Origin: Candidatus Moraniibacteriota bacterium
GTDB taxonomy: Bacteria > Patescibacteriota > Minisyncoccia > Moranbacterales > GWC2-37-73
Length of the DNA: 64,000 nucleotides
Reading direction: 5' to 3'
NCBI GenBank assembly: GCA_003507445.1
Contig: DNVR01000004.1
Coordinates: 28,243 to 92,242 of the forward strand
How positions within the stretch are numbered: the first letter of the stretch is position 1; every line of letters starts with the position of its first letter. Positions 32,071 to 62,915 of the stretch are shown here, piece after piece. The notes beneath the pieces were generated by a model that worked only from the letters and a program-made list of their open reading frames with translations, was not told the DNA's origin and searched no databases. Made by a program: the position numbers and the translations under genes.

Positions 32071-32166
32071 ACTCAAATTCCCGTCCCCATCCATATATTA
32101 ATTAAAGGATGTGATAATGTTTTAACTCAAAAGAGACATTCCTGCCGAGAACGGTCCTCGGCAAGT
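32071..32166. repeat. composite repeat copy A (AT palindrome catccatatattaattaaaggatg + GC hairpin ccgagaacggtcctcgg)
   Basis: It shares both modules, and the linker ttttaactcaaaagRgacattcct, with copies at 32691-32856 and 33204-33293. Confidence 0.5.
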
Positions 32167-32173
32167 TTACCCA

Positions 32174-32856: not shown

Positions 32857-32892
32857 ATTAATCTTATCGAATTAACTGAAATAGCAGTACAT

Positions 32893-32985
32893 TGTCATCC
32901 TCAGCTTGCCGTGCCCGCCTATGGAGGGACTGGGGATCCAGAGTGATGCCTGGCCATGGATTCCCTTTTTCAAGGGAATGACAAA
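32893..32985. repeat. GC-rich nested-hairpin element (gtcat...gggaatgac family)
   Basis: tgtcatcctcagcttgccgtgcccgcctatggagggactggggatccagagtgatgcctggccatggattccctttttcaagggaatgacaaa. It is about 90% identical to 62792-62882, and its 3' hairpin equals the reverse complement of 21104-21126. Confidence 0.55.
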
Positions 32986-33203
32986 CTACTATAGATTCAG
33001 TTATTTTGGTATTATTAAAATCATTTAGTGTCAACTTCGCTGTACATCATTATTGTATTCAGTGTCAAGTATAATTTACACTGATTTTTATTTGCAGTAT
33101 ATTACCCTGTCTTAGCTCTTTTTTCATCTTTTTTATTGTTTTCCATTTTTATTATTTATGATGATATTATATCACTTCTTTATTTTATTAACAAGATAAA
33201 CAA

Positions 33204-33293
33204 AACACATCCATATATTAATTAATGGATGTGTTTTGTTTTAATTCATTTTAACTCAAAAGGGACATTCCTACCGAGGACCGTCCTCGGTGG
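33204..33293. repeat. composite repeat copy C (11-bp-arm palindrome aacacatccat...atggatgtgtt + GC hairpin ccgaggaccgtcctcgg)
   Basis: The hairpin ends 4 nt before the stop of minus-strand gene 33295..34449. Confidence 0.5.
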
Positions 33294-33294
33294 T

Positions 33295-34449
33295 TTACTC
33301 CTTATTAATAACTTTTTCCAAAAGATTGATTGAATGATTCCAAGTCCAATTTTTTACTGTCTTATAGCCACCTTCAATTAATTTATTCTTCAATTCCCTA
33401 TCATTTATCAACTGCTGGATGGCTTTTTTTGCACCCTCCACATCCCCCTGTTCAACAACGAGTGCATTTTCACCGTCAACAATATATTCGTCATAGCCAG
33501 TCACTTTTCCAACCACCACAGCACAGCCACAAGCCATTGCTTCCATAGGTGGACCAAAAAATCCTTCAATTCTACTCATCTTAAGAAAAATATCGCAAGA
33601 TGAATAAATTTCATTCATTTTATCAAATGGTACGTTTTCAAAAAACTTATCGTATTTCCAATTACTTTTAGGTTTTCCATTGTTACTCACAATCCAAAGT
33701 TCGCAGTCCAAATCCTTTACTGCATTATATGCATCTTCCATACCCTTGTATGGAACATCTATTGAGCCTTCAAGTAAAATTCTAGGCTTTTCTGTTTTAA
33801 CTATTAATGGCTTTGTTTTATAAAACAAATTTTCATCCAATCCATTGGGAACATAATAAGATTCTTTACCACAATCATTTTTTAACCATTTCTGAATCCA
33901 AAGTGCTTCAGTCATATACTCCAAGGGAAGTGAATATGTTTTCTTTATAATACTGCAAAGATCTTCATTATCTGAAAAAAATCTGCTCTCATCTGATTGC
34001 ACAAAATATATTTTTCTTCTTGTTTGAGCCATATCAACAGTAAATGCAGTGCTATATGCAGTTGCAATCAAAATATCAATCTCGCCACTTTTTAATATTT
34101 CTTTTGTTTTATTAAATGGCAAAATTTCAATTTCTTGATCAGGAAACCAACTTGCATCATTTTTATTTGTGAGAGAAAGAATTTTTACATCATATCCCCT
34201 CTTTTTTAATCTATTTGCGTGTTGAAAAATTACCGCAATACCTCCAGAAATTTTTACACCAGGAACAAGATAATAAATTTTCTGCTCTTTACCAGTTTTA
34301 TTTTTAACAGTATTAATAATGGATTTTCTGTTCTCATTAAATTTTTTCCATCTAGAATATTCTCCATCAAAAAAGAAACGGGTTTTAATTGTTTTGCTAT
34401 TTATATATAAATAGCACTTTTTAAAAAATAATATTGAAAATGAATCCAT
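33295..34449 (-). CDS. GT4-family glycosyltransferase
   Basis: 384 aa. The C-terminal domain IEGFFGPPMEAMACGCAVVVG is the GT4 E-x7-E region. Confidence 0.65.
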   Translation of the reverse strand: MDSFSILFFKKCYLYINSKTIKTRFFFDGEYSRWKKFNENRKSIINTVKNKTGKEQKIYYLVPGVKISGGIAVIFQHANRLKKRGYDVKILSLTNKNDASWFPDQEIEILPFNKTKEILKSGEIDILIATAYSTAFTVDMAQTRRKIYFVQSDESRFFSDNEDLCSIIKKTYSLPLEYMTEALWIQKWLKNDCGKESYYVPNGLDENLFYKTKPLIVKTEKPRILLEGSIDVPYKGMEDAYNAVKDLDCELWIVSNNGKPKSNWKYDKFFENVPFDKMNEIYSSCDIFLKMSRIEGFFGPPMEAMACGCAVVVGKVTGYDEYIVDGENALVVEQGDVEGAKKAIQQLINDRELKNKLIEGGYKTVKNWTWNHSINLLEKVINKE

Positions 34450-51683: not shown

Positions 51684-52919
51684 TTAACTGTTCCATGAGT
51701 GTTTAATATCACAAAAACCTCTGTAGCTATTTTTTATTCCACTTGAATATATCTTTAATACCTTGTAACTCAATTTAAGATCATAAGGGTTTATTTCAAT
51801 ATCCTTCCAGCATCCAACATTGATAATGTATTCCCCTTTCAAAATTGGCAAATCATTAAAGTGTAGCACGATACTATTTTTAGTTTTATCTACATCTATA
51901 TTATCCATTTGTGTATTATACCCAAAAATTTGACCTCCAGATACCGCATGTAAACCTATTCCAAAATTAAGCTCTTTAATTTCACCATGAATCTCAAAGT
52001 CAATTTTAATATCCAATTCATCACCAGTTTCGAAAACACTTTTATCTTTACCATTTTTATCTAAAAATTCCACTCCCGTAATTTCAACAATTTTATTAGA
52101 ATTAGATTTATCAACTTTACCAAAAACAACAACTTTCTTTTCTTTTTCTGCTTGTTCATCGCTAATTCTTTTTTCTTCATCTGACATATTTTCATAAACA
52201 TATTCATTAGCCACATCAATAGCTTTCCCTATTTTCAATATTTTTCCGTTTCGAAGAAGCATCGCTCGATCGCAATATTTTTCAACAACCAGGGTATCAT
52301 GTGTCACCAAGATCACAGTTTTGCCTTGATTTTTGTATTTTGTAAATTCTCTAATACATTTTGACTGGAAATTATTATCGCCCACTGCCAGCACTTCATC
52401 CATCAGCAGAATCTCGCGGTTGGCGTGAATGGAAACGGAAAAAGCCAGGCGGACTTGCATACCGGAGGAATAATTTTTGAGTTTTTGATCAATAAAACGT
52501 TCCAGTTCAGAAAATTTCACAATTGAATCAAATTTCTTGTCAATTTCTTTTTTGGTCAGACCCAAAACCGTGGCATTAAGATACACATTGTCGCGACCAC
52601 TTAGTTCTGGATTAAAACCAATTCCCAATTCCAAAAACGGCGAAATCCGCCCATCAATTTCCACACTCCCCTTGTCAGTCTGATAAATCCCAGCCAGAAT
52701 TTTCAATAGCGTGCTTTTCCCACTCCCATTTCGCCCAATAATCCCAAAAAATTCCCCCTTCTTCACCTCAAAGCTAACGTCATCCAACGCCTTAAATTCC
52801 TCATAGCCCTTATTGCGGCTAAATGCGCTCACGGCTGCGCCACGCAAAGAAGACACCTTCTCATGAGGAATTTTGAAGGTCTTTGAGACGTTTTTGACGC
52901 TGATTGCTATATCATTCAT
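51684..52919 (-). CDS. wzt: ABC transporter ATP-binding protein, Wzt/TagH-like with C-terminal extra domain
   Basis: 411 aa with Walker A GRNGSGKST, signature YSSGMQVRLAF and Walker B LLMDEVLAVGD. A beta-rich C-terminal domain of about 150 aa resembles the Wzt carbohydrate-binding domain. Confidence 0.8.
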   Translation of the reverse strand: MNDIAISVKNVSKTFKIPHEKVSSLRGAAVSAFSRNKGYEEFKALDDVSFEVKKGEFFGIIGRNGSGKSTLLKILAGIYQTDKGSVEIDGRISPFLELGIGFNPELSGRDNVYLNATVLGLTKKEIDKKFDSIVKFSELERFIDQKLKNYSSGMQVRLAFSVSIHANREILLMDEVLAVGDNNFQSKCIREFTKYKNQGKTVILVTHDTLVVEKYCDRAMLLRNGKILKIGKAIDVANEYVYENMSDEEKRISDEQAEKEKKVVVFGKVDKSNSNKIVEITGVEFLDKNGKDKSVFETGDELDIKIDFEIHGEIKELNFGIGLHAVSGGQIFGYNTQMDNIDVDKTKNSIVLHFNDLPILKGEYIINVGCWKDIEINPYDLKLSYKVLKIYSSGIKNSYRGFCDIKHSWNS

Positions 52920-52987
52920 TGAAGTTGTTCGGTTAATGAGTTAACGCGTTAACGAGTTTGCTAGACTCATCTTACGAGTTAAAGGGT

Positions 52988-53377
52988 TTATTTTTTGATA
53001 AATTCTTTGTTTTGCTTTTTCTCAACTAAATATGCTATAAATTTTCCAATCTGAGCTGACAATATTTCCAACTCTTTATTTGTTTTTTCGAATTCAAACT
53101 CAGTAATATATTTTATTGCAAATGCTATGTGAAGTTGATTTCTAACCTCTCCTGCAGAACCTTTCGCGATTCTTAAAAAACGCGCGAACTCATTATTGTT
53201 GTTTTTCTCAAATCCTTCTACTATGTTAGAACTAACGGAAACAATAGCTCTCCTTATTTGATCGCGCAATCCAAAATCTCTAGCAAAATCTTTTTCTGAC
53301 GTATAATCGTAAATTACTTTTGTTATTCTTAAACTATCCTTCCAAATATTCAATTCTTCAAATTTTTGTATTTTCAT
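52988..53377 (-). CDS. four-helix-bundle protein (TIGR02436 / Avd-like, so-called 23S rRNA intervening-sequence protein)
   Basis: 129 aa. KIQKFEELNIWKDSLRITKVIY ... ARFLRIAKGSAGEV is typical of this family. It is flanked by 11-bp perfect inverted repeats gttaacgagtt (52948-52958) and aactcgttaac (53378-53388), plus GTTAACGCGTTAAC palindromes. Confidence 0.7.
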   Translation of the reverse strand: MKIQKFEELNIWKDSLRITKVIYDYTSEKDFARDFGLRDQIRRAIVSVSSNIVEGFEKNNNNEFARFLRIAKGSAGEVRNQLHIAFAIKYITEFEFEKTNKELEILSAQIGKFIAYLVEKKQNKEFIKK

Positions 53378-53544
53378 AACTCGTTAACCCGTCAACACGT
53401 TAACTAAATAATAAATAAACTTTGGACTTCCTTAGTCATTGGAAATTTAGATTTAGGATTTTATGGTTATTCTTGACGCTAATGGCAATATTATCTTCCA
53501 TCTAAATATTGTAGCTTATTTTTTAATTCCATTCCAGCTTTTTC

Positions 53545-54585
53545 CTATTTTTCAATATTTTTAAATTTATAGTAAGTCGCTTTTCCATTTCCCTGTTTTT
53601 CAATAATATTCAAAGCTATCAGCTTTCTAAAATCAAGATTTCTTGTTGGCTTTGCCCTATCAATCAATTTTGCATAGTCACGATCACTGATAAAGCCATG
53701 TTTTTCAATATATGCGATAATTTTTTTATGATAAGACTTCAACTCATTTTCTGGAGATGCAGTTTCTTGGTTCAGTTGCTTTTCAACCCTAAGCAGCTCA
53801 TCAATGATTCCATCCGTAAAATATTCAAGCCAAGAAGTGAAGTCTATGTCATTTTTAATGTCATAATAGTTGCCAAGTAAACCAACTTCTTGAAAATATT
53901 TGCTCACATTTTGATTGTAATAATTTTCAAAACTGAAAAGATTGAACGTGTTGAGACCCATCTTGGCAAGCAACACCTTTGTTGCCAAGCGGGCAGTTCG
54001 TCCATTTCCATCAATGAAGGGATGAATGATGACAAATTGTTTATGAAAAATACCCGCCAAAATCAATGGATCGATTTTATTTTCATTTTTAATCACATAT
54101 TCAAAAATTTCATTCATCAATTTTGGCACTTCCAAATGTTCAGGCGGAAGATAGACCGTTTGACGAGTTTTTGGATTGTTGACAAAAACTGGCTCCTGCC
54201 TCAATTTCCCTGACCTATTTTTTTCAATCAAATCCTGAGTGACAGTTTTTTGAATTTTCAAAATCAAAGACAAGTCGAAAATCTGCTTTTCATCGGCAAT
54301 CAATTCATTCAATTCAATCAATGCCTTATTGTAGTTCAAAACTTCTTTTTCACTGTCGCGAATATGTTCGGGCTTATTTTTCAAAATCCTCTTTACGTCA
54401 GTGAGCGGCAATGGATTACCCTCAATACTCGTGGAAGAAAAAGCTGATATTTCTCTTGCTCTTTTTTCCAGTTCAGCCAGAATTACGCCAGAAAAACTCC
54501 GACTGTTCAGGCCAGTGACTATTTCCGTTATTCTTTTAATATTGGCCAATAACTGACCAGAAATGATATATTTTGGATGAAACAT
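53545..54585 (-). CDS. Fic/DOC-family protein (AMPylator-type, class II with N-terminal inhibitory motif)
   Basis: The core motif HPFIDGNGRTARL (HPFx[DE]GNGR) is present. The N-terminal STSIEGN matches the (S/T)xxxE(G/N) inhibitory helix, and a C-terminal winged-helix-like domain follows. The track start 54591 is TTG; the first ATG is at 54585. Confidence 0.85.
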   Translation of the reverse strand: MFHPKYIISGQLLANIKRITEIVTGLNSRSFSGVILAELEKRAREISAFSSTSIEGNPLPLTDVKRILKNKPEHIRDSEKEVLNYNKALIELNELIADEKQIFDLSLILKIQKTVTQDLIEKNRSGKLRQEPVFVNNPKTRQTVYLPPEHLEVPKLMNEIFEYVIKNENKIDPLILAGIFHKQFVIIHPFIDGNGRTARLATKVLLAKMGLNTFNLFSFENYYNQNVSKYFQEVGLLGNYYDIKNDIDFTSWLEYFTDGIIDELLRVEKQLNQETASPENELKSYHKKIIAYIEKHGFISDRDYAKLIDRAKPTRNLDFRKLIALNIIEKQGNGKATYYKFKNIEK

Positions 54586-54599
54586 TAGCAATTTTTAAA

Positions 54600-54790
54600 T
54601 CATGTTATATAGACTTATTATAGACGATTGATAGACGATTGTCAACCCCACATATCCCCGCCAGAATTTTCAAAAGGGTTGATTTTCCACTCCCTTTTCG
54701 CCCAATAATCCCCTGCCTACCAAACAAGCAGACAAAAAATTCCCCTTCTTTATACTGTTAAATCCTCGCCATAGCTTGTTCTGGAAATTT
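54600..54790 (-). pseudogene. relic fragment of a second wzt-like ABC ATPase gene (Walker A region only)
   Basis: The minus strand encodes GIIGRKGSGKSTLLKILAGI, about 85% nt-identical to wzt 52690-52760. A 21-nt insertion and a frameshift follow, with a stop shortly after. The fic promoter is embedded in it. Confidence 0.5.
54617..54645 (-). promoter_or_regulatory. sigma70 promoter, perfect consensus TTGACA-17-TATAAT driving fic
   Basis: Minus strand reads ttgaca atcgtctatcaatcgtc tataat. The -35 is at 54640-54645 and the -10 at 54617-54622, about 31 nt upstream of ATG 54585. Confidence 0.55.
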
Positions 54791-54828
54791 TGCTTGATTT
54801 TGTTTGATATGGCATCATATTAACCTTA

Positions 54829-55422
54829 TCATATAACAAAAAACAGCACTTTGCAATCCGAGGCAAAGAAAAAAGGAAGAACGAAAATTCGTTCTCCCTT
54901 GTATTTACTCTCCAAAAATACCCTGCTTACTACCTTCGCGGCACCTCCTCGATGATGATTTTTTTTATGTTTTTTTTGTATTTCTTCGTTGGCATCATCA
55001 CGAACAGAAATGGCTTCAAGAATTCGAGATCTGCCAGAAGAACTCATGCTCCACAAAGAAATTCGAAGTGCATTCAGTTCAACTTTTTTACCGTCCTTGA
55101 AAATCTCCTTGAGTAGTAGTATGAACTCCTCCAGTGATTCTTTCAATATCTCCATATCGATTTTTGGATCTGATATGGAAATTTTCTCAACAAGTAGTTG
55201 AAGCAGCTCTTTGAGATTTTGAATCTTTGGCGAATCCTGTACCCTATTGATCTTATTTTGATCTGTCAGGGATGAAGGAAATGCATCGGGGTTGAATTTG
55301 TACGAATTAACATCGCCTGTTTGCGGTGCAAACCCTTTTTCTCCCGGCACTAAACCCTGAGCACTACGAAGCGTTAAATCCTCTCTTGTTGACAAGTGAA
55401 CGTTCTGATTTGGCACTGACAT
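54829..55422 (-). CDS. hypothetical protein (GC-richer than window average)
   Basis: 197 aa with no recognisable domain. It is about 40% GC by eye versus about 31% for its surroundings. Confidence 0.35.
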   Translation of the reverse strand: MSVPNQNVHLSTREDLTLRSAQGLVPGEKGFAPQTGDVNSYKFNPDAFPSSLTDQNKINRVQDSPKIQNLKELLQLLVEKISISDPKIDMEILKESLEEFILLLKEIFKDGKKVELNALRISLWSMSSSGRSRILEAISVRDDANEEIQKKHKKNHHRGGAAKVVSRVFLESKYKGERIFVLPFFFASDCKVLFFVI

Positions 55423-55590
55423 TGCTTTTCTCCTTTTTTCAGTTTATTTTTCTGCAATTCTGCAGAGTTCTTGGCAGATTTCTTGTTGTTAAAACTACCA
55501 ACTTACCATCCCTTTTTATACAGCATTTTCAAGAACCTGTCAATAGCAAAAAAGGCAGGTTGAATAATTCAAACAAAAACAATTCTTGTC

Positions 55591-55989
55591 TTATTTGTTT
55601 TTCTTCAATTTTCGGGAAGTCAAAATTATTTGAACAAGGCTAATGATGACGAAGAGTGCTGAAGAGAAAAATGCTACGGTTCCCTTTTCAATTGGGAAAA
55701 TGAAATTATGCGAATATGAAGGTGATATCAAAATTACCAGCATTGAAAGCGGAACCCAGATGCGAGCAAAACGCCACCAGGATTGGAAAATTTTATCCTG
55801 CATTGGGTATGTGATGAGAGAGAAGATAAAAAGAGTAATTGTTGGGAAAAAAACAAATGCCACTGAATCGTCATGCGATCTGCTGCAGATTAAATTTATC
55901 AAACAAAGACCTTTCACTGAAATAGTTATCGCAACACTAAAAATTATTGCCCCGCAAACACTAAGAAATAATACTCTTTTTTTTGTCAT
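55591..55989 (-). CDS. small membrane protein (3-4 TM), hypothetical
   Basis: 132 aa and hydrophobic, located immediately downstream of the giant secreted protein gene. Confidence 0.4.
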   Translation of the reverse strand: MTKKRVLFLSVCGAIIFSVAITISVKGLCLINLICSRSHDDSVAFVFFPTITLFIFSLITYPMQDKIFQSWWRFARIWVPLSMLVILISPSYSHNFIFPIEKGTVAFFSSALFVIISLVQIILTSRKLKKNK

Positions 55990-56014
55990 ATATTTATATC
56001 AATATTTATTAAAG

Positions 56015-59000
56015 TTAATAATTTATTTTAATAATACCTTTTTCTGTTAGTATACTCGGAATTATCATTCCTGTCATTTTTTTCCAAACTGGACGACGGT
56101 CGGCATTGTCATCCCTATCATCATCACCAATTTCATTTGGTTTTTCCATAAACCAAGTTTGATTTTTGTTTGGAAAATAATGAGATTCCAATGACATTGA
56201 CTCGGTGCTCAAATGTGAAGCAAAGAGCAAAAACTTTTTTCTTCTCCAATCTTGCAACCACTTGTATTGCAAATTTCCATTAGAAATTTCTGTCTTGTTT
56301 CCATCGTATGAAATTGAAGAAAGTGACAAATCAATTCTCCTGCTTTTGTCCTTTTTCTTTTCCCAAACAATTTCAGTCTTGTGCCCTGCCTCATCTGTCA
56401 AAGTTGCAGTGTCAATGATTTTCTTTTCTTTTTTCTTTTGAAGCCATCCCCAATTCCAAAATTTGTTTTTCTTGCTACTTTGCTTATTATCAATAAAAAC
56501 AATCTGCTCTTTTATTTCAACTGAAACATTTTGAGAAAGATTGTCGCTTCCAATAACATCAAGTTCTTGAGTTTTTGCATTGAAAATAAGTTTGGCTTCG
56601 GGTGCAGTTTTATCTATCTTAACTGCAACTTTTTGAGCTTCTTCAGTATTTCCTTGTTTATCAGTAGAAAAATATTGAATTTCAAAAACACCTTCTGCAG
56701 TTAAAGTGATAGAATCCGAATATACCTTCCAAGTTTTGCCATCATCCAATGAAAATTCCGTTTTTTCAAGACCACTACCTTCATCATTGTCTTTTGCAGA
56801 CAGTGAAATTTTGACATCACTTATATACCAATCATTGTTTCCATGTGTGCCTTCAATGGAACTTGTAGTAACAGGAGGAGATTGATCAAGAGTCACAATC
56901 TCTCCAATTTTCGGTTTCAAATCAAAATCAATAGTACCATTTCCATCTTCATCAATTTCAAGATTTGAAGCGCTTTGCAGATCATCTGCAACATTAAAGG
57001 TTACTTTTGTTTCAGGAGTTACTGGCATATCTTTAAATGTCACTTTACCCAGACTCTCATCACCCCTAAATTCTTCAACCGCAAATGTGAAAGTTCCCGT
57101 GTCATAACCTTTCATTTTTATTTTGCTTGAAATATTTTCGTTTGTGAAAATATATTTTACATCCCCAAATTGTTTGAAATATGTTCCGGGGATTTGCTCT
57201 TTAATTTCTCCATCAGGATTTATGCCAGTGCAATTTTCTTCATTATCATTATCACACAATTCGAATGATAGCGGCGAATGGAGAGAATATTGAAGACGTT
57301 TCTCATCTGACGCTGATGGAACTTCTGACGAAAAATATTCATAATCAGAAATTGGCTTGGCTTTGTTACCAATATTATCTGCGATAAAAGAATTGAGTTC
57401 TGGAATTTCAAGAATATTGGCATGTTCAGCATTTCTTAATAAAAAAATATTATAAGAATCGAGATCAAACCAATATTTCTCCACACCACTCATCCACAAT
57501 GCACTTGGCGTGACCACTGTTCCATCGCCATCAATTGTAAATTTGAAATCAGGATCCAAAACATCAGCCCCGCTGAAACAAGAGCCAGCATCACAATATC
57601 GTGTTTTCTCGACACTATAATCAATGCCACTAAGCGTAGCTGGCACGCCCCAACCTGCAATCTGAATAACCTTCACTCCTTCAGGAACATTCCAAGAATC
57701 CAAACTATTATGCGTATTTTTCGAATTTTCCAACAAATTAACATTTGATCTGGCAGGAATATCAACATCAGAATTTACTGCAAGAACTTTACGAAAATCA
57801 TCTCTTAAAAAGTCCATCAACCCTTCATTGGAATTAATTTCGCCACTATAATTATCTTTCAAATCAGAAAGCAAACCGGTATTAAATTTAACGACTGGCG
57901 TTTGAACTTTTGAAAAATATTCATTTGAAGGCAACAGATTGTACGCCCCTGGCATATTTTCTCCCAAACTTCTTGCTGTTTTGGTGCTTAATACTGGAAA
58001 CAAATTTTGTTTCTCCCCGTGAAGAAGAGCGGCAATTGCTGCTGGCGTGCCGACCTGAGGCACTGCCACGAAAATTATTTTGTCCACAAGATTTTTTGCT
58101 TCCTCACTTCCCAGTTTTTGCATCAGGGCTTTTGCAACCAATCCCCCATTTGAATGCGCCACAATGGTCACTTTTCCTGTTTTGGATGATGACGCCAAGC
58201 GTCTGAGTTCAGAAATTGTATACGGGGAATCAGTTTCCTTATTATATGAAATATTATCGCCATCTTTTTTACCGCTTGTCAAAACATCATTAAGCGAAAG
58301 TCGCCAATCATACGGAGCAGCAATCCAATCATTAATCATCTTGTCTTTGTTTTTCAAATCATTCATTTTTGCAATAAAAGATTTGTAATAATTTATTTGT
58401 CCCACAGGAAGAATATTAGTTTCGTCCAATACATCGCGTGTGTAGATGTCATATTCGTCAGTACTTTCTCCTTCCTTGTTCAAAAAAAGTTTTTCGACAT
58501 CAGCATTGCGATTTGGCTCCCACAATTGATTCTCACAATTTACCAGCAAACAACTTGGATCATCTTTGGCATAAAGTCGGCTCGCCTTAAGACCCGGCAA
58601 AAACAAAACGTTGGATGCATAATCAACGCCGAATTTGGATGGGCTAAATCCATTCAAAACATAATCCCCTTTAATAATTTCTCCACCTATATCATAATTA
58701 GGTTTTTGTCTTGGTCCAACGGAATTGCCATACCAATTATTTTCCAATTTGGCTATATTTTTATTATGAATATATTCTTTCGTATTTATATCATATCTAC
58801 TTGATGAAGAAATCAAAGCAGTATTTTGAAGATTACCCTCAAAATTGGAGCTCACAATTTCAATCAAATCTCCACGATTATTCTCGTAATAATAATTACC
58901 AACAACCACGTCAGCATATTTGTTATTCAAAAAATCGGAATTTTCTATCCGCACTTTTCCACTTCCAAACTCCACTGCAGGATTTTCTCTTATTATTCGT

Positions 59001-59563
59001 GGTGCTTCCTGTGCTTTGGCAGTTTGAACAAAAGATTTAAAAATATTGAAAGATGTTACACTGGAACAAATTTCAATATCCTCATAATCATACGACCCCA
59101 TATTCTCAATTTTCACATAATTAAAAATTGAGGATTCATTACCTTCATAAAATGACTCGTCGTAAAAACCCACCACTCCACGTGGAGCTGAGGTACAAAA
59201 TTCATAATACATTTTTTCATTTTCAGAATATTGGGAATAATCAGGATTAGCTTTCGTAAATATAATCGGCTCATCTTTGGTTCCTTGAGCCACAATTCTT
59301 CCATACAAGACTTCCAAATCCAAAATCTCCACGCGTGTACCTTTTTCAATCGTAACAGTAGCGCCATCAACAATCACAACTGGTTTCCATATATCATTAT
59401 ATGTAACAGTTCCTCGCCAAGTCACATCTTCATTAATAACAATATAGTTGTCATAATCATCCCAAATATTATCCTCCGAAATTGGAAAATTAGCACTAGC
59501 ACATCTTGGGAAAAAAGCTGAAACAACCAGCACAACAAAAACATACTGTAATATTTTTATCAT
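56015..59563 (-). CDS. giant secreted protein with alpha/beta-hydrolase (lipase/LCAT/PGAP1-like GxSxG) domain and beta-rich flanking domains
   Basis: 1182 aa with a signal peptide MIKILQYVFVVLVVSAFFPRCASA. The central VTIVAHSNGGLVAKAL is a nucleophile elbow (AHSxGG). Long beta-rich N-terminal and C-terminal regions flank it. Confidence 0.6.
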   Translation of the reverse strand: MIKILQYVFVVLVVSAFFPRCASANFPISEDNIWDDYDNYIVINEDVTWRGTVTYNDIWKPVVIVDGATVTIEKGTRVEILDLEVLYGRIVAQGTKDEPIIFTKANPDYSQYSENEKMYYEFCTSAPRGVVGFYDESFYEGNESSIFNYVKIENMGSYDYEDIEICSSVTSFNIFKSFVQTAKAQEAPRIIRENPAVEFGSGKVRIENSDFLNNKYADVVVGNYYYENNRGDLIEIVSSNFEGNLQNTALISSSSRYDINTKEYIHNKNIAKLENNWYGNSVGPRQKPNYDIGGEIIKGDYVLNGFSPSKFGVDYASNVLFLPGLKASRLYAKDDPSCLLVNCENQLWEPNRNADVEKLFLNKEGESTDEYDIYTRDVLDETNILPVGQINYYKSFIAKMNDLKNKDKMINDWIAAPYDWRLSLNDVLTSGKKDGDNISYNKETDSPYTISELRRLASSSKTGKVTIVAHSNGGLVAKALMQKLGSEEAKNLVDKIIFVAVPQVGTPAAIAALLHGEKQNLFPVLSTKTARSLGENMPGAYNLLPSNEYFSKVQTPVVKFNTGLLSDLKDNYSGEINSNEGLMDFLRDDFRKVLAVNSDVDIPARSNVNLLENSKNTHNSLDSWNVPEGVKVIQIAGWGVPATLSGIDYSVEKTRYCDAGSCFSGADVLDPDFKFTIDGDGTVVTPSALWMSGVEKYWFDLDSYNIFLLRNAEHANILEIPELNSFIADNIGNKAKPISDYEYFSSEVPSASDEKRLQYSLHSPLSFELCDNDNEENCTGINPDGEIKEQIPGTYFKQFGDVKYIFTNENISSKIKMKGYDTGTFTFAVEEFRGDESLGKVTFKDMPVTPETKVTFNVADDLQSASNLEIDEDGNGTIDFDLKPKIGEIVTLDQSPPVTTSSIEGTHGNNDWYISDVKISLSAKDNDEGSGLEKTEFSLDDGKTWKVYSDSITLTAEGVFEIQYFSTDKQGNTEEAQKVAVKIDKTAPEAKLIFNAKTQELDVIGSDNLSQNVSVEIKEQIVFIDNKQSSKKNKFWNWGWLQKKKEKKIIDTATLTDEAGHKTEIVWEKKKDKSRRIDLSLSSISYDGNKTEISNGNLQYKWLQDWRRKKFLLFASHLSTESMSLESHYFPNKNQTWFMEKPNEIGDDDRDDNADRRPVWKKMTGMIIPSILTEKGIIKINY

Positions 59564-59608
59564 ATTTGTTTATTTAAATATATTATTATTAATTTTATTG
59601 ATATTATA

Positions 59609-59652
59609 CCAACAAACAAAAAGTTCGTAAAGTTATAAACCTTACGAACTTT
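59609..59652 (-). terminator. rho-independent terminator for wzm
   Basis: Plus strand reads aagttcgtaaag ttataaac cttacgaactt (12/11-bp stem). On the minus strand it is followed by TTTTTGTTTGTT, 25 nt after the wzm stop. Confidence 0.6.
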
Positions 59653-59675
59653 TTAACTTTCGACTTTTGACTGTT

Positions 59676-60452
59676 TTAGATTTCTTCCGCAACCTTGGGA
59701 ATAAATTTTCGATATGAAAATATGCTTAGGGCGAAAGCGCCAAAAACGATGGCGATGAACACGGTGTATTGCGAAAGGCTGGCGAAATGATTGTTGATGA
59801 GTGATTCCTTGGTAAAGTGAATAATAAATGCCAAGGGATTAAGTAGAATAAATTTATGATATGCTGCCGGCAAAGTTACTAAGGGATAAATAATCGGCGA
59901 CGCGTACAAAATTATCATCAATAAAACTTCCCAAATCATCGCCAGGTCGCGAAATTTAACATACAGCGGTGCAGTGATGAGTGAAAAAGAAAGAACGATA
60001 ATATATATGAAAACAGAAAACATTAAAAACAAAAGAACTGCTGGAATGCTCGGCATGAAACCTTTAAGCGCAAAGAAAAAAACAATCACAACAAGGTTCA
60101 TCAAAAATATCAAAGTTGCATTAATTGTAGAAGCAATAATAATCGTCCAACGTGGCACATAAATTTTGGTCACAAGTTGAGCTTTTGATAAAAGTGAACT
60201 CATTCCTGCTGTCGTTCCTTCAGAGAAAAAATAAAACATCATAAGCGCAACCAACAACTGCAACGAATATGTGCTCATTCCGGTTCCACGAGGATTAAAC
60301 ATTGAAGAAAAAACAAAATTCATCACCGCAAAAGTAAGCAATGGCTTGAGCAGCGCCCACAAATATCCCAAAACACTTCCGTGATAACGAAGTTTAAAAT
60401 CAGTTTTCGCTAAAGCCCAAATCAGCTCCTTATAATTTTCGTGTTGTTTCAT
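59676..60452 (-). CDS. wzm: ABC-2 type polysaccharide/teichoic-acid export permease (Wzm/TagG-like)
   Basis: 258 aa with 6 TM helices. The N-terminus ELIWALAKTDFKLRYHGSVLGYLWALLKPLL is the canonical ABC-2 permease start. Confidence 0.8.
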   Translation of the reverse strand: MKQHENYKELIWALAKTDFKLRYHGSVLGYLWALLKPLLTFAVMNFVFSSMFNPRGTGMSTYSLQLLVALMMFYFFSEGTTAGMSSLLSKAQLVTKIYVPRWTIIIASTINATLIFLMNLVVIVFFFALKGFMPSIPAVLLFLMFSVFIYIIVLSFSLITAPLYVKFRDLAMIWEVLLMIILYASPIIYPLVTLPAAYHKFILLNPLAFIIHFTKESLINNHFASLSQYTVFIAIVFGAFALSIFSYRKFIPKVAEEI

Positions 60453-61460: not shown

Positions 61461-61579
61461 ACTGCAATTTTAAATTTTAAATTTGAAATTTTAAATCAAT
61501 TTTTAAATTCTAAATAAATAATTTTTAAACATTTTTTATTCAGATTTCATTTCAAATTTTAAATTTAGCCTTTAAAATT

Positions 61580-62776: not shown

Positions 62777-62791
62777 ATAACTTTGTATTTT

Positions 62792-62882
62792 ATCATCCTC
62801 AGCTTGCCGTGCCCGCCTCTGGAGGGACTGAGGATCCAGAGTGGTGCCTAGCCCTGGATTCCCGTTTTCACGGGAATGACAT
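62792..62882. repeat. GC-rich nested-hairpin element (near-identical to 32893-32985)
   Basis: atcatcctcagcttgccgtgcccgcctctggagggactgaggatccagagtggtgcctagccctggattcccgttttcacgggaatgacat, located between two GT4 genes. Confidence 0.55.
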
Positions 62883-62915
62883 GCTATGCATATTCTGTTA
62901 ATTTAGCTTAACAAA

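Follow-up and report, generated by a model that had tools for sequence, protein, structure and literature searches.

The 64,000-nucleotide (nt) stretch analyzed here (the window) comes from a groundwater Candidatus Moranbacteria genome of the candidate phyla radiation (CPR; Patescibacteria) and carries wzm and wzt, the permease and ATPase genes of an ATP-binding cassette (ABC) exporter of surface glycans; these and all other genes discussed lie on its minus strand. Both genes are intact, as judged by their Pfam domains, and the Walker A, signature, Walker B, and H-loop motifs of wzt can all be read directly in the translation. The two are not adjacent, as the genes of an exporter operon should be: 6756 nt separate them, with terminator-like hairpins in between. 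Reading from wzm, the intervening block begins with an LCAT-like gene, the small membrane protein gene mem132, and the hypothetical gene hyp197. Directly upstream of wzt there then lie, in this order, a stub of a gene of cluster c32, a stub of wzt itself that covers the Walker-A region (wzt''), a Fic gene cassette, a second wzt stub that carries the start of the gene (wzt'), a four-helix-bundle (4HB) element that resembles the intervening sequences (IVS) of rRNA, and intact wzt (Table 1).

Table 1. Features in and around the wzm-wzt interval of the window.
Feature	Position	Strand	Details
wzm, intact ABC-2 permease	59676..60452	-	258 aa; PF01061 (ABC2_membrane), E 5e-13
Terminator-like hairpin directly after wzm	59617..59655	-	18-bp stem + T run; consensus scan
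LCAT-like secreted alpha/beta hydrolase gene	56015..59563	-	1182 aa; PF02450, E 2e-17
mem132, small membrane protein, LCAT partner	55591..55989	-	Cluster c8
hyp197, fast-evolving hypothetical gene	54829..55422	-	Positional counterpart of c58 in L007
Terminator-like hairpin overlapping hyp197 3' end	54873..54900	-	12-bp stem + T run; 87.5% conserved in L007
c32 stub	54750..54818	-	22 codons + stop; MMPYQTKSSKISRTSYGEDL vs c32 MIPYQAKSKKIAGTSYGEVL
wzt'' stub, Walker-A region	54639..54751	-	~codons 52-80; in-frame 21-nt insertion at 54713-54733
Fic promoter	54617..54645	-	TTGACA-17-TATAAT; 12/12 consensus match
Fic gene, class II, SoFic type	53545..54585	-	346 aa; PF02661, 72.6 bits (cut-off 24)
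wzt' stub	53469..53538	-	wzt-type upstream region + ATG 53501 + 11 codons MEDNIAISVKN; reads to stop at 53436
IVS-like 4HB element	52922..53422	-	Arm 53378-53422, ORF 52988-53377 (129 aa), arm 52922-52958
wzt, intact ABC ATPase + Wzt_C domain	51684..52919	-	411 aa; PF00005 (ABC_tran) + PF14524
ORF-less palindrome, epimerase-GT398 spacer (outside block)	61461..61579	-	119 nt; predicted hairpin

Much of this had been described in an earlier note made from the sequence alone: the separation of wzt and wzm by about 6.8 kb, a GC-richer hypothetical gene (hyp197), a secreted alpha/beta-hydrolase of 1182 residues, a class-II Fic gene with a perfect promoter, a four-helix-bundle gene bracketed by inverted repeats immediately upstream of wzt, and the absence of any recombinase. 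All of these descriptions stand. The AHSNGG serine motif and the hydrophobic N-terminus of the LCAT-like protein can be read directly, and no recombinase family matched any open reading frame (ORF) of the block, although attC-type sites were not specifically searched. The GC content is 0.394 in hyp197 against a window mean of 0.339, 0.343 in the Fic gene, 0.353 in the LCAT-like gene, and 0.29 in the 4HB gene; within wzt it is 0.401 over codons 1-250 versus 0.286 in the C-terminal part, and the genes downstream have values of 0.28-0.31. Only the 4HB gene, hyp197, and the two halves of wzt thus stand out, and composition is not decisive as a sign of foreign origin. Thirteen contigs on record encode the identical wzm protein, and the gene order was the same in four of the six places shown among them (ENA, NCBI, and JGI), the remaining two contigs stopping within the block; since independent assemblies agree, the arrangement is not an assembly artefact.

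When species-representative genomes were scanned, 80 loci with wzm orthologues (59-97% identity) were recovered, nearly all from Moranbacteria or Parcubacteria, and these loci were compared by tblastn and ORF clustering; loci are labeled from L001 onward, and gene clusters c8, c9, c32, and so on. In 37 of them both wzm and a full wzt are present, and in a further 34 the sequence available downstream of wzm, 1.5-10 kb, includes no full wzt. The two genes are adjacent (<150 nt) in 17 of the 37, so that the synteny comparison called for in the earlier note does reveal relatives without the block. They are parted solely by a 4HB element (580-656 nt) in three, by 1.8-3.3 kb in six, and by 3.9-9.0 kb that include an LCAT-like gene in 11. 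What fills the gap differs between genomes. Apart from SoFic, which was assigned by PADLOC, the contents are named by Pfam domain only, and they comprise NTase/HEPN-type pairs, AAA_14-DUF4143 ATPases, an AlbA_2/HATPase_c_4 protein, NYN, DUF3800, DUF1016/YhcG, and PaaX/Cas2-like proteins, IS200-like Y1 transposases, a secreted DUF5648-SpoIID protein with a cysteine-rich partner, and MBOAT and AlgX-like O-acylation genes. IS200-like transposases therefore occur in the equivalent slot of other genomes, but not in the block of the window. The gap between wzm and wzt is a variable slot, and, because its content varies across related loci, the split exporter of the window is one state of a slot that is found lineage-wide.

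The closest relative, L007 (wzm 97% identical), illustrates this turnover. Its homology to the window covers wzm, the C-terminal part of the LCAT-like gene, mem132, and the flanks of hyp197 and then breaks, an NTase/HEPN-type pair standing where the window has the c32 stub, wzt'', Fic, and wzt'. Homology returns at about 53455-53474 and extends across the 4HB left arm as far as the sixth 4HB codon. There, L007 is fused through the microhomology AAATTTGA to wzt codons ~127-150, and beyond the fusion come further cargo (DUF3800 and others) and finally an intact wzt. L007 thus holds the decayed remains of a 4HB-wzt unit like that of the window, with a newer layer behind it, and the fusion shows that microhomology deletions occur.

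The stubs are the clearest trace of how the slot was filled. Over positions 54654-54712, the Walker-A stub matches intact wzt (52687-52745) at 51 of 59 nt (86%; E 7e-15 in a comparison with the whole window), and 81% identity is kept over 74 nt. It is translated as KEGEFF[VCLFGRQ]GIIGRKGSGKSTLLKILAGI, the in-frame insertion being in brackets. The earlier note had called this a degenerate copy about 85% identical to wzt, and alignment bears out both the copy and its 21-nt insertion. The frameshift it had also reported was not found, the insertion being in frame; nor does the fic promoter lie inside the relic, as had been thought, but at its 3' edge, where the overlap is limited to the -35 hexamer and the final ~7 nt of wzt homology. 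The relic had been taken to mark a duplication or recombination junction, and it is a genuine recombination scar. The similarity to wzt is significant, and no intact second wzt or other ABC ATPase occupies the relic position in the 80 related loci. The c32 stub, in a different frame from the adjoining Walker-A stub, matches the starts of c32 genes at 77% (L028) and 74% (L030) of nucleotides, and an intact c32 lies immediately upstream of wzt in L028, L030, and L080. The start stub between fic and the 4HB element, absent from the earlier reading, agrees with the wzt start of L044 at 32 of 34 nt (E 1e-8) and with the window's own wzt start at 20 of 25 nt. Its upstream motif is also found downstream of fic in L087 (score 43 against a shuffle maximum of 34; 0/300 shuffles), whereas the L087 coding stub after fic is not significant alone, being matched by 219 of 500 shuffles. 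We also considered the start stub as a target-site duplication made by the 4HB element and rejected this: other 4HB insertions before wzm or wzt lack a duplicated start of the downstream gene, and the stub is therefore not a 4HB footprint.

Such fragments are not peculiar to the window. They occur in L007, L008, L020, L030, L043 (several), L044, L050, L080, L086, L088, and L089, nearly all of them starting at wzt codon 2-3 and cut off on the 3' side, and they reach 167-192 codons in L020 and L044. Most are nearest to the full-length wzt of their own locus (L030, 100% over 187 nt; L086, 94%; L080, 92%; L050, 90%; L020, 81%). The freshest example of the pattern of stub, cargo, and wzt is L030 (18163-19989), where a perfect 187-nt direct repeat, which begins 7 nt before the wzt ATG and extends to about codon 60, encloses an IS200-like tnpA (169 aa) with matching hairpin ends (CCCCGYCAGCTTGCTGCGGGG) and a frameshifted, decayed DUF3800 gene. 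The same geometry is found at a different gene in L009 (8081-9195), in which a 201-nt 5' stub of an epimerase gene (87.6% identical to the intact copy) precedes a gene for a 176-aa P-loop protein and the intact epimerase gene.

The Fic gene is a module in its own right. Its start was considered at TTG 54591, but the conserved start is ATG 54585. The catalytic motif HxFx(D/E)GNGRxxR is present as H188PFIDGNGRTAR199, as seen in the translation and in an alignment with FICD, and the inhibitory motif (S/T)xxxE(G/N) as S51-T-S-I-E55-G56, which aligns with TVAIEG of FICD; because the inhibitory motif lies N-terminal to the Fic core in the same protein, the protein belongs to class II. The PADLOC SoFic model PDLC03963 matches with an E value of 7.4e-46 (residues 48-343 on model positions 61-353 of 361), and the protein is most probably an AMP-transferase that inhibits itself and belongs to the SoFic abortive-infection type. 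Fic loci elsewhere share homology with the window from 54645/54647 to 53508-53558. In eight contexts the cassette begins on the left precisely at the -35 box, the DNA upstream of it being unrelated, and TTGACAATCGTCTA..AATCGTCTATAAT is kept at that edge in all eight; in five of the eight, homology ends at the fic stop codon. These edges define a compact module of promoter plus gene, about 1.1 kb long. Three CGTCTAT/GTCTATA repeats that overlap the -35 box, the spacer, and the -10 box are retained in all eight cassettes (window 54617-54645; L087, L089, and L091-L095). They form a plausible putative operator, which may serve autoregulation through the DNA-binding-like C-terminal domain of Fic. 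The Fic protein has thousands of relatives, the best 120 of which are 74-88% identical and mostly from Moranbacteria or Parcubacteria; a search for close relatives on viral contigs found none. Each of the eight contexts is a locus for surface glycans. L088 has, in order, Fic, 4HB, a wzt fragment, NYN, an NTase/HEPN-type pair, and wzt, and in L089 a Walker-A stub precedes the cassette, with a 4HB'::wzt' fusion, NYN, and wzt after it.

The 4HB protein scores 110.3 bits against PF05635 (cut-off 33.8), and its nearest solved relative is PDB 2GSC (E 6e-16). The arms of the element are 34-37 nt long and 73-79% complementary, and only 2 nt lie between the right arm and the wzt ATG. The motif GTTAACGMGTT occurs seven times in the window against 1.5 expected, and six of the seven copies flank the 4HB gene. 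The duplex formed by the flanks has an energy of -37.9 kcal/mol compared with a shuffle mean of -22.9, and the minimum free energy (MFE) fold closes a terminal stem around the ORF. Across the 80 loci we found 22 such elements (23 hmmsearch hits, two of them from one split gene in L052), every one in the same orientation as the downstream gene. Directly after 10 of them comes wzm and after 5-7 wzt; three are placed between c10 and c9, one precedes epim, and one stands between two c80 genes. Arm sequences differ between subfamilies. In all 22 elements, the duplex of an element's own arms (-29 to -52 kcal/mol) is more stable than both the median pairing with arms of other elements (medians -14 to -33 kcal/mol) and the shuffle mean. 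Arm remnants abut wzt or wzm start codons in other loci, and nested or replaced elements are visible in L052, by comparison with L029, and in L017. Positions 10800-11390 of L052 hold a window-type 4HB that is interrupted by an internal stop and, after it, the right arm of an L029-type element (L029 11250-11395), and at 10780-10900 in L017 a relic of a different 4HB N-terminus (MGKIEKFEDI) lies upstream of the present 4HB. These arrangements are evidence that one 4HB element can take the place of another at a given site.

The part of the block next to wzm has a different history. LCAT-like homologues adjoin wzm either downstream or upstream (34 ORFs across the 80 loci). In the closest relatives (L007, L008, L020, L026, L027, and L030), the LCAT-like gene and mem132 separate wzm from wzt, and in L012, L017, L046, L048, and L067 they are found directly upstream of wzm; cluster c8, to which mem132 belongs, comes after the LCAT-like gene in 15 loci and is 93% identical in L007. 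These two genes are lineage-conserved neighbors, not recent cargo. A weak Pfam ABC2_membrane match (E 0.003) raised the idea that mem132 is a decayed wzm C-terminus, which we rejected, as BLASTP against wzm gave an E value of 1.8 and mem132 is a conserved LCAT partner. The 5' flank of hyp197 (55543..55410) and its 3' terminator region (54912..54866) are kept in L007, and the similarity of the hyp197 and c58 proteins is weak (33% over 61 aa, E 2e-4); hyp197 matched nothing in Pfam or PADLOC. The LCAT-like gene is itself uneven in comparison with L007 (56851-59563 against L007 11214-13350): its C-terminal third has 82% nucleotide identity, and the N-terminal two thirds have no nucleotide match and 23% protein identity, which suggests a recombination breakpoint or rapid divergence inside the gene.

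The terminator-like hairpin after wzm suggests that wzm is no longer co-transcribed with the genes that follow it. A consensus scan found no terminator on the way from the fic promoter to wzt, and that promoter, part of the fic cassette, therefore probably now drives Fic, 4HB, wzt, and the glycan genes farther downstream. The paired 4HB arms, 2 nt before the start codon of wzt, are a likely place for processing of the RNase III type, by analogy with the intervening sequences of rRNA.

Taken together, the 6.8 kb consists of an older part (the LCAT-like gene, mem132, and hyp197) and a stack of independently acquired modules at the 5' end of wzt. That the block is composite, built in several events from independent modules in a variable slot, we regard as highly probable. 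As to how the modules arrived, incoming DNA would recombine at the conserved, relatively GC-rich 5' end of wzt, used as homology. A circular intermediate carrying a 5' fragment of wzt could insert by a Campbell-type single crossover, or an equivalent duplicative event could occur, leaving a 5'-intact, 3'-truncated wzt copy upstream of the cargo and a complete wzt downstream. Only duplicative insertions would survive because the exporter stays functional. The upstream copy would then decay and be trimmed by microhomology deletions, and repeated rounds would stack layers with the oldest farthest from wzt, no dedicated recombinase being needed. The Campbell-type mechanism specifically is offered tentatively, as a possibility rather than a probability; the blend of the multi-event history with this mechanism is, as a whole, what we consider the best explanation, and a reasonably probable one.

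Several points weigh against this explanation. The Campbell-type step is deduced, not seen. Two stubs are nearer to the wzt of another lineage (the start stub of the window, 94% to L044 versus 80% to its own; the L008 stub, nearest to the wzt of the window), and their foreign affinity is better fitted by replacement of resident by incoming DNA; gene conversion between repeats could blur either signal, as L030, with a perfect repeat around decayed cargo, illustrates. The Walker-A stub of the window lacks a 5' end, so that an extra deletion must be invoked. Stability of the whole 516-nt 4HB element RNA is not significant (z-score -1.42), and only the terminal stem is claimed. The proposals on transcription and processing draw only on consensus scans and folding, and the PADLOC SoFic assignment is a sequence match only. 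Finally, the Fic family is well conserved (75-88% identity) and always found in glycan loci and could therefore be a housekeeping gene there.

The foremost rival is accordingly replacement of the locus, as in glycan-type switching. Incoming DNA would bring an intact wzt together with its upstream neighbor (Fic, later 4HB) and downstream type-specific genes, the resident downstream region would be replaced, and the left junction would form by illegitimate recombination inside the resident wzt, which would survive as a stub. Besides the foreign affinity of the window's start stub and of the L008 stub, the step in GC from 0.40 to 0.29 within wzt, continuing at 0.28-0.31 downstream, is typical of a swapped type-specific region, and microhomology joints exist. 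Most stubs, however, are nearest to the wzt of their own locus, the perfect 187-nt repeat included, and intact stub 5' ends are predicted equally by both models. We think replacement unlikely to be the better account; it is nevertheless compatible with duplicative insertion, and both processes may operate or alternate.

A second possibility is that an ancestral second ABC ATPase paralogue decayed in place without any insertion. Polysaccharide loci sometimes carry two exporters, and the fragments of up to 167-192 codons in L020 and L044 might be read in that way. None of the 80 loci, however, has an intact second wzt in the slot; a candidate in L065 turned out to have no homology to wzt and to be an artefact of single-linkage clustering. 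In addition, the positions, lengths, and neighbors of the stubs vary by genome, stubs are up to 100% identical to their own wzt, and the exporter genes are adjacent in 17 loci. This alternative is largely refuted and very improbable.

We give slightly less credence still to the idea that Fic and 4HB form a functional two-gene unit of toxin and antitoxin or regulator, analogous to SoFic with its downstream partner AS1. The 4HB gene does follow Fic in the window and in L087/L088, and a small downstream antitoxin has been reported for an E. coli SoFic (PMC12249575). In five of the eight Fic contexts, however, no 4HB adjoins Fic, and only two of the eight genomes examined have the two next to each other; in L094 a 4HB lies 4 kb away, between two sulfate-activation genes. 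The two 4HBs that adjoin Fic belong to different subfamilies with different arms, elements before wzm, wzt, c9, and epim in the 80 loci have no Fic nearby, and Fic already has its own inhibitory helix. An obligate pair is therefore unsupported. The earlier note had proposed that a Fic/4HB cassette was acquired: both are acquired modules, but they are independent units rather than one cassette. Its further suggestion, that possibly the whole block was acquired as a unit, fails, and a single 6.8-kb foreign insertion into an adjacent wzm-wzt pair is the least credible reading of all: relatives do have the adjacent pair, and the block does carry its own promoter and terminators, but the LCAT-mem132 pair is common to many relatives, here or upstream of wzm, L007 has that pair, the hyp197 flanks, and the 4HB left arm but no Fic, three different gene stubs lie inside the block as traces of a multi-event stack before wzt, and the GC contents of the LCAT-like and Fic genes are unremarkable (0.35 and 0.34 versus a window mean of 0.34).

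The components of the stack are all of known kinds: a SoFic-type Fic, an IVS-type 4HB element, and a variable hotspot. SoFic is described as an abortive-infection AMP-transferase (PMC12249575). The window Fic shares with the single-gene SoFic anti-phage system (Shewanella oneidensis, PDB 3EQX/3ZEC) the Fic and inhibitory motifs, a similar length, and the PADLOC match; it also matches the PDB entries of SoFic and FICD, but distantly (E ~1e-11 to 1e-14). Unlike SoFic, it travels as a cassette of promoter and gene with conserved CGTCTAT repeats, Fic of the window type is always in CPR glycan loci, and there is no conserved AS1-like partner; its defense role is putative. The intervening sequences of 23S rRNA that encode S23p have a 28-bp terminal stem cut by RNase III (PMC4990558). 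Those of Coxiella and Leptospira (PMC4990558) resemble the window element in protein family (PF05635/2GSC-like) and in having an ORF of ~120-130 codons inside terminal inverted repeats, in sense orientation within a transcribed unit. The window element, in contrast, occupies a spacer within a protein-coding operon and immediately precedes a start codon, and there is no rRNA in the window: no Rfam family, those for rRNA included, matched anywhere in it at gathering thresholds. Its arms vary by subfamily, ORF-less palindromes with the same arms occur, and RNase III cleavage is here only predicted. Avd of the diversity-generating retroelements belongs to a homologous four-helix-bundle family (PMC10053308); unlike Avd systems, the block has no reverse transcriptase domain in any ORF and no pair of template and variable repeats, the only long direct repeat in 51.6-60.5 kb being the wzt stub.

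As in defense islands and hotspots, the flanks of the slot (wzm and wzt) are conserved and its content is highly variable, including defense-type and toxin-antitoxin-type genes. Unlike usual hotspots, this one is placed within an exporter operon, where it separates the two genes of a functional pair, is marked by duplicated 5' stubs of the flanking gene, has no integrase, tRNA, or att site at the slot (attC-type sites were not specifically searched), and takes cargo that includes glycan-modifying genes. The geometry of truncated 5' copy, cargo, and full copy is that of a Campbell-type insertion-duplication, and the serial stacking of promoter-proximal modules recalls the cassette arrays of integrons; unlike in those systems, no plasmid, circle, or integrase was observed, and the repeats are fragments of host genes, not attC sites. 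Two things are unusual: modules stacked without a recombinase and marked by stubs of an essential gene, and IVS-like elements that sit in protein-coding operons. In the literature searched there was no account of IVS-like 4HB elements outside rRNA or of such a CPR hotspot, an absence that is no proof of novelty.

CPR bacteria have tiny genomes with few recognizable mobile elements, and how they acquire and shuffle accessory and defense genes is poorly understood. The locus and its relatives offer a concrete, testable picture, in which an operon for surface-glycan export is a main variable slot and entry needs no dedicated recombinase; the leftover 5' stubs and microhomology joints amount to a stratigraphic record. 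In annotation, small ORFs called 'hypothetical' or 'ABC_tran fragment' at loci of this kind should be read as scars instead of genes. A SoFic-type Fic cassette is placed consistently in glycan loci, and the architecture of the 23S-rRNA IVS and its 4HB protein is extended to protein-coding operons, which bears on the long-open role of both the elements and the proteins. A bolder generalization can be stated, though as speculation that we doubt will hold in full. In it, the conserved 5' ends of essential genes such as wzt would be recombinase-free attachment sites in Moranbacteria, and perhaps in CPR bacteria generally, at which promoter-bearing cassettes (defense genes, toxin-antitoxin pairs, and glycan modifiers) would be stacked and exchanged by RecA-type recombination, with decaying stubs recording the order of arrival; the array would in effect be integron-like without an integrase. 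The 4HB elements would likewise be general mobile, hairpin-flanked units, found in mRNA operons and not in rRNA alone, that colonize the few bases before start codons as insulators of transcript processing.

Palindromes related to the 4HB arms also occur apart from any 4HB gene. One arm of the ORF-less palindrome in the epimerase-GT398 spacer of the window is 97% identical over 34 nt, and the other 81% over 67 nt, to the 4HB flanks of L018; the arms also match the flanks in L039, L010, and L071, and in L034 a similar palindrome fills the 116-nt spacer between wzm and wzt; both look like empty or decayed 4HB elements or hairpin-only precursors. Solitary palindromes of the GTTAACNNGTT type, the arm motif of the window 4HB, with no 4HB ORF nearby, are present in other intergenic spacers of L020 (494-530 and 6769-6809) and L029 (3771, 7099, 7583, and 9355). 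An intergenic repeat of 116 nt, whose two copies in the window (62790-62904 and 32892-33007) are 86% identical, has several predicted GC-rich hairpins and MFE values of -40 to -46 kcal/mol. No Rfam family matched it, any copies in the 80 related loci were confined to the source strain, and it may be a structured RNA or a REP-like (repetitive extragenic palindromic) element. Another intergenic repeat (33190-33295 and 32080-32170; 81% over 83 nt) contains a GC-rich hairpin of the CCGAGGACGGTCCTCGG type and resembles in style the 35-nt hairpin repeat that flanks the epimerase stub of L009 (7211, 8090, and 8361).

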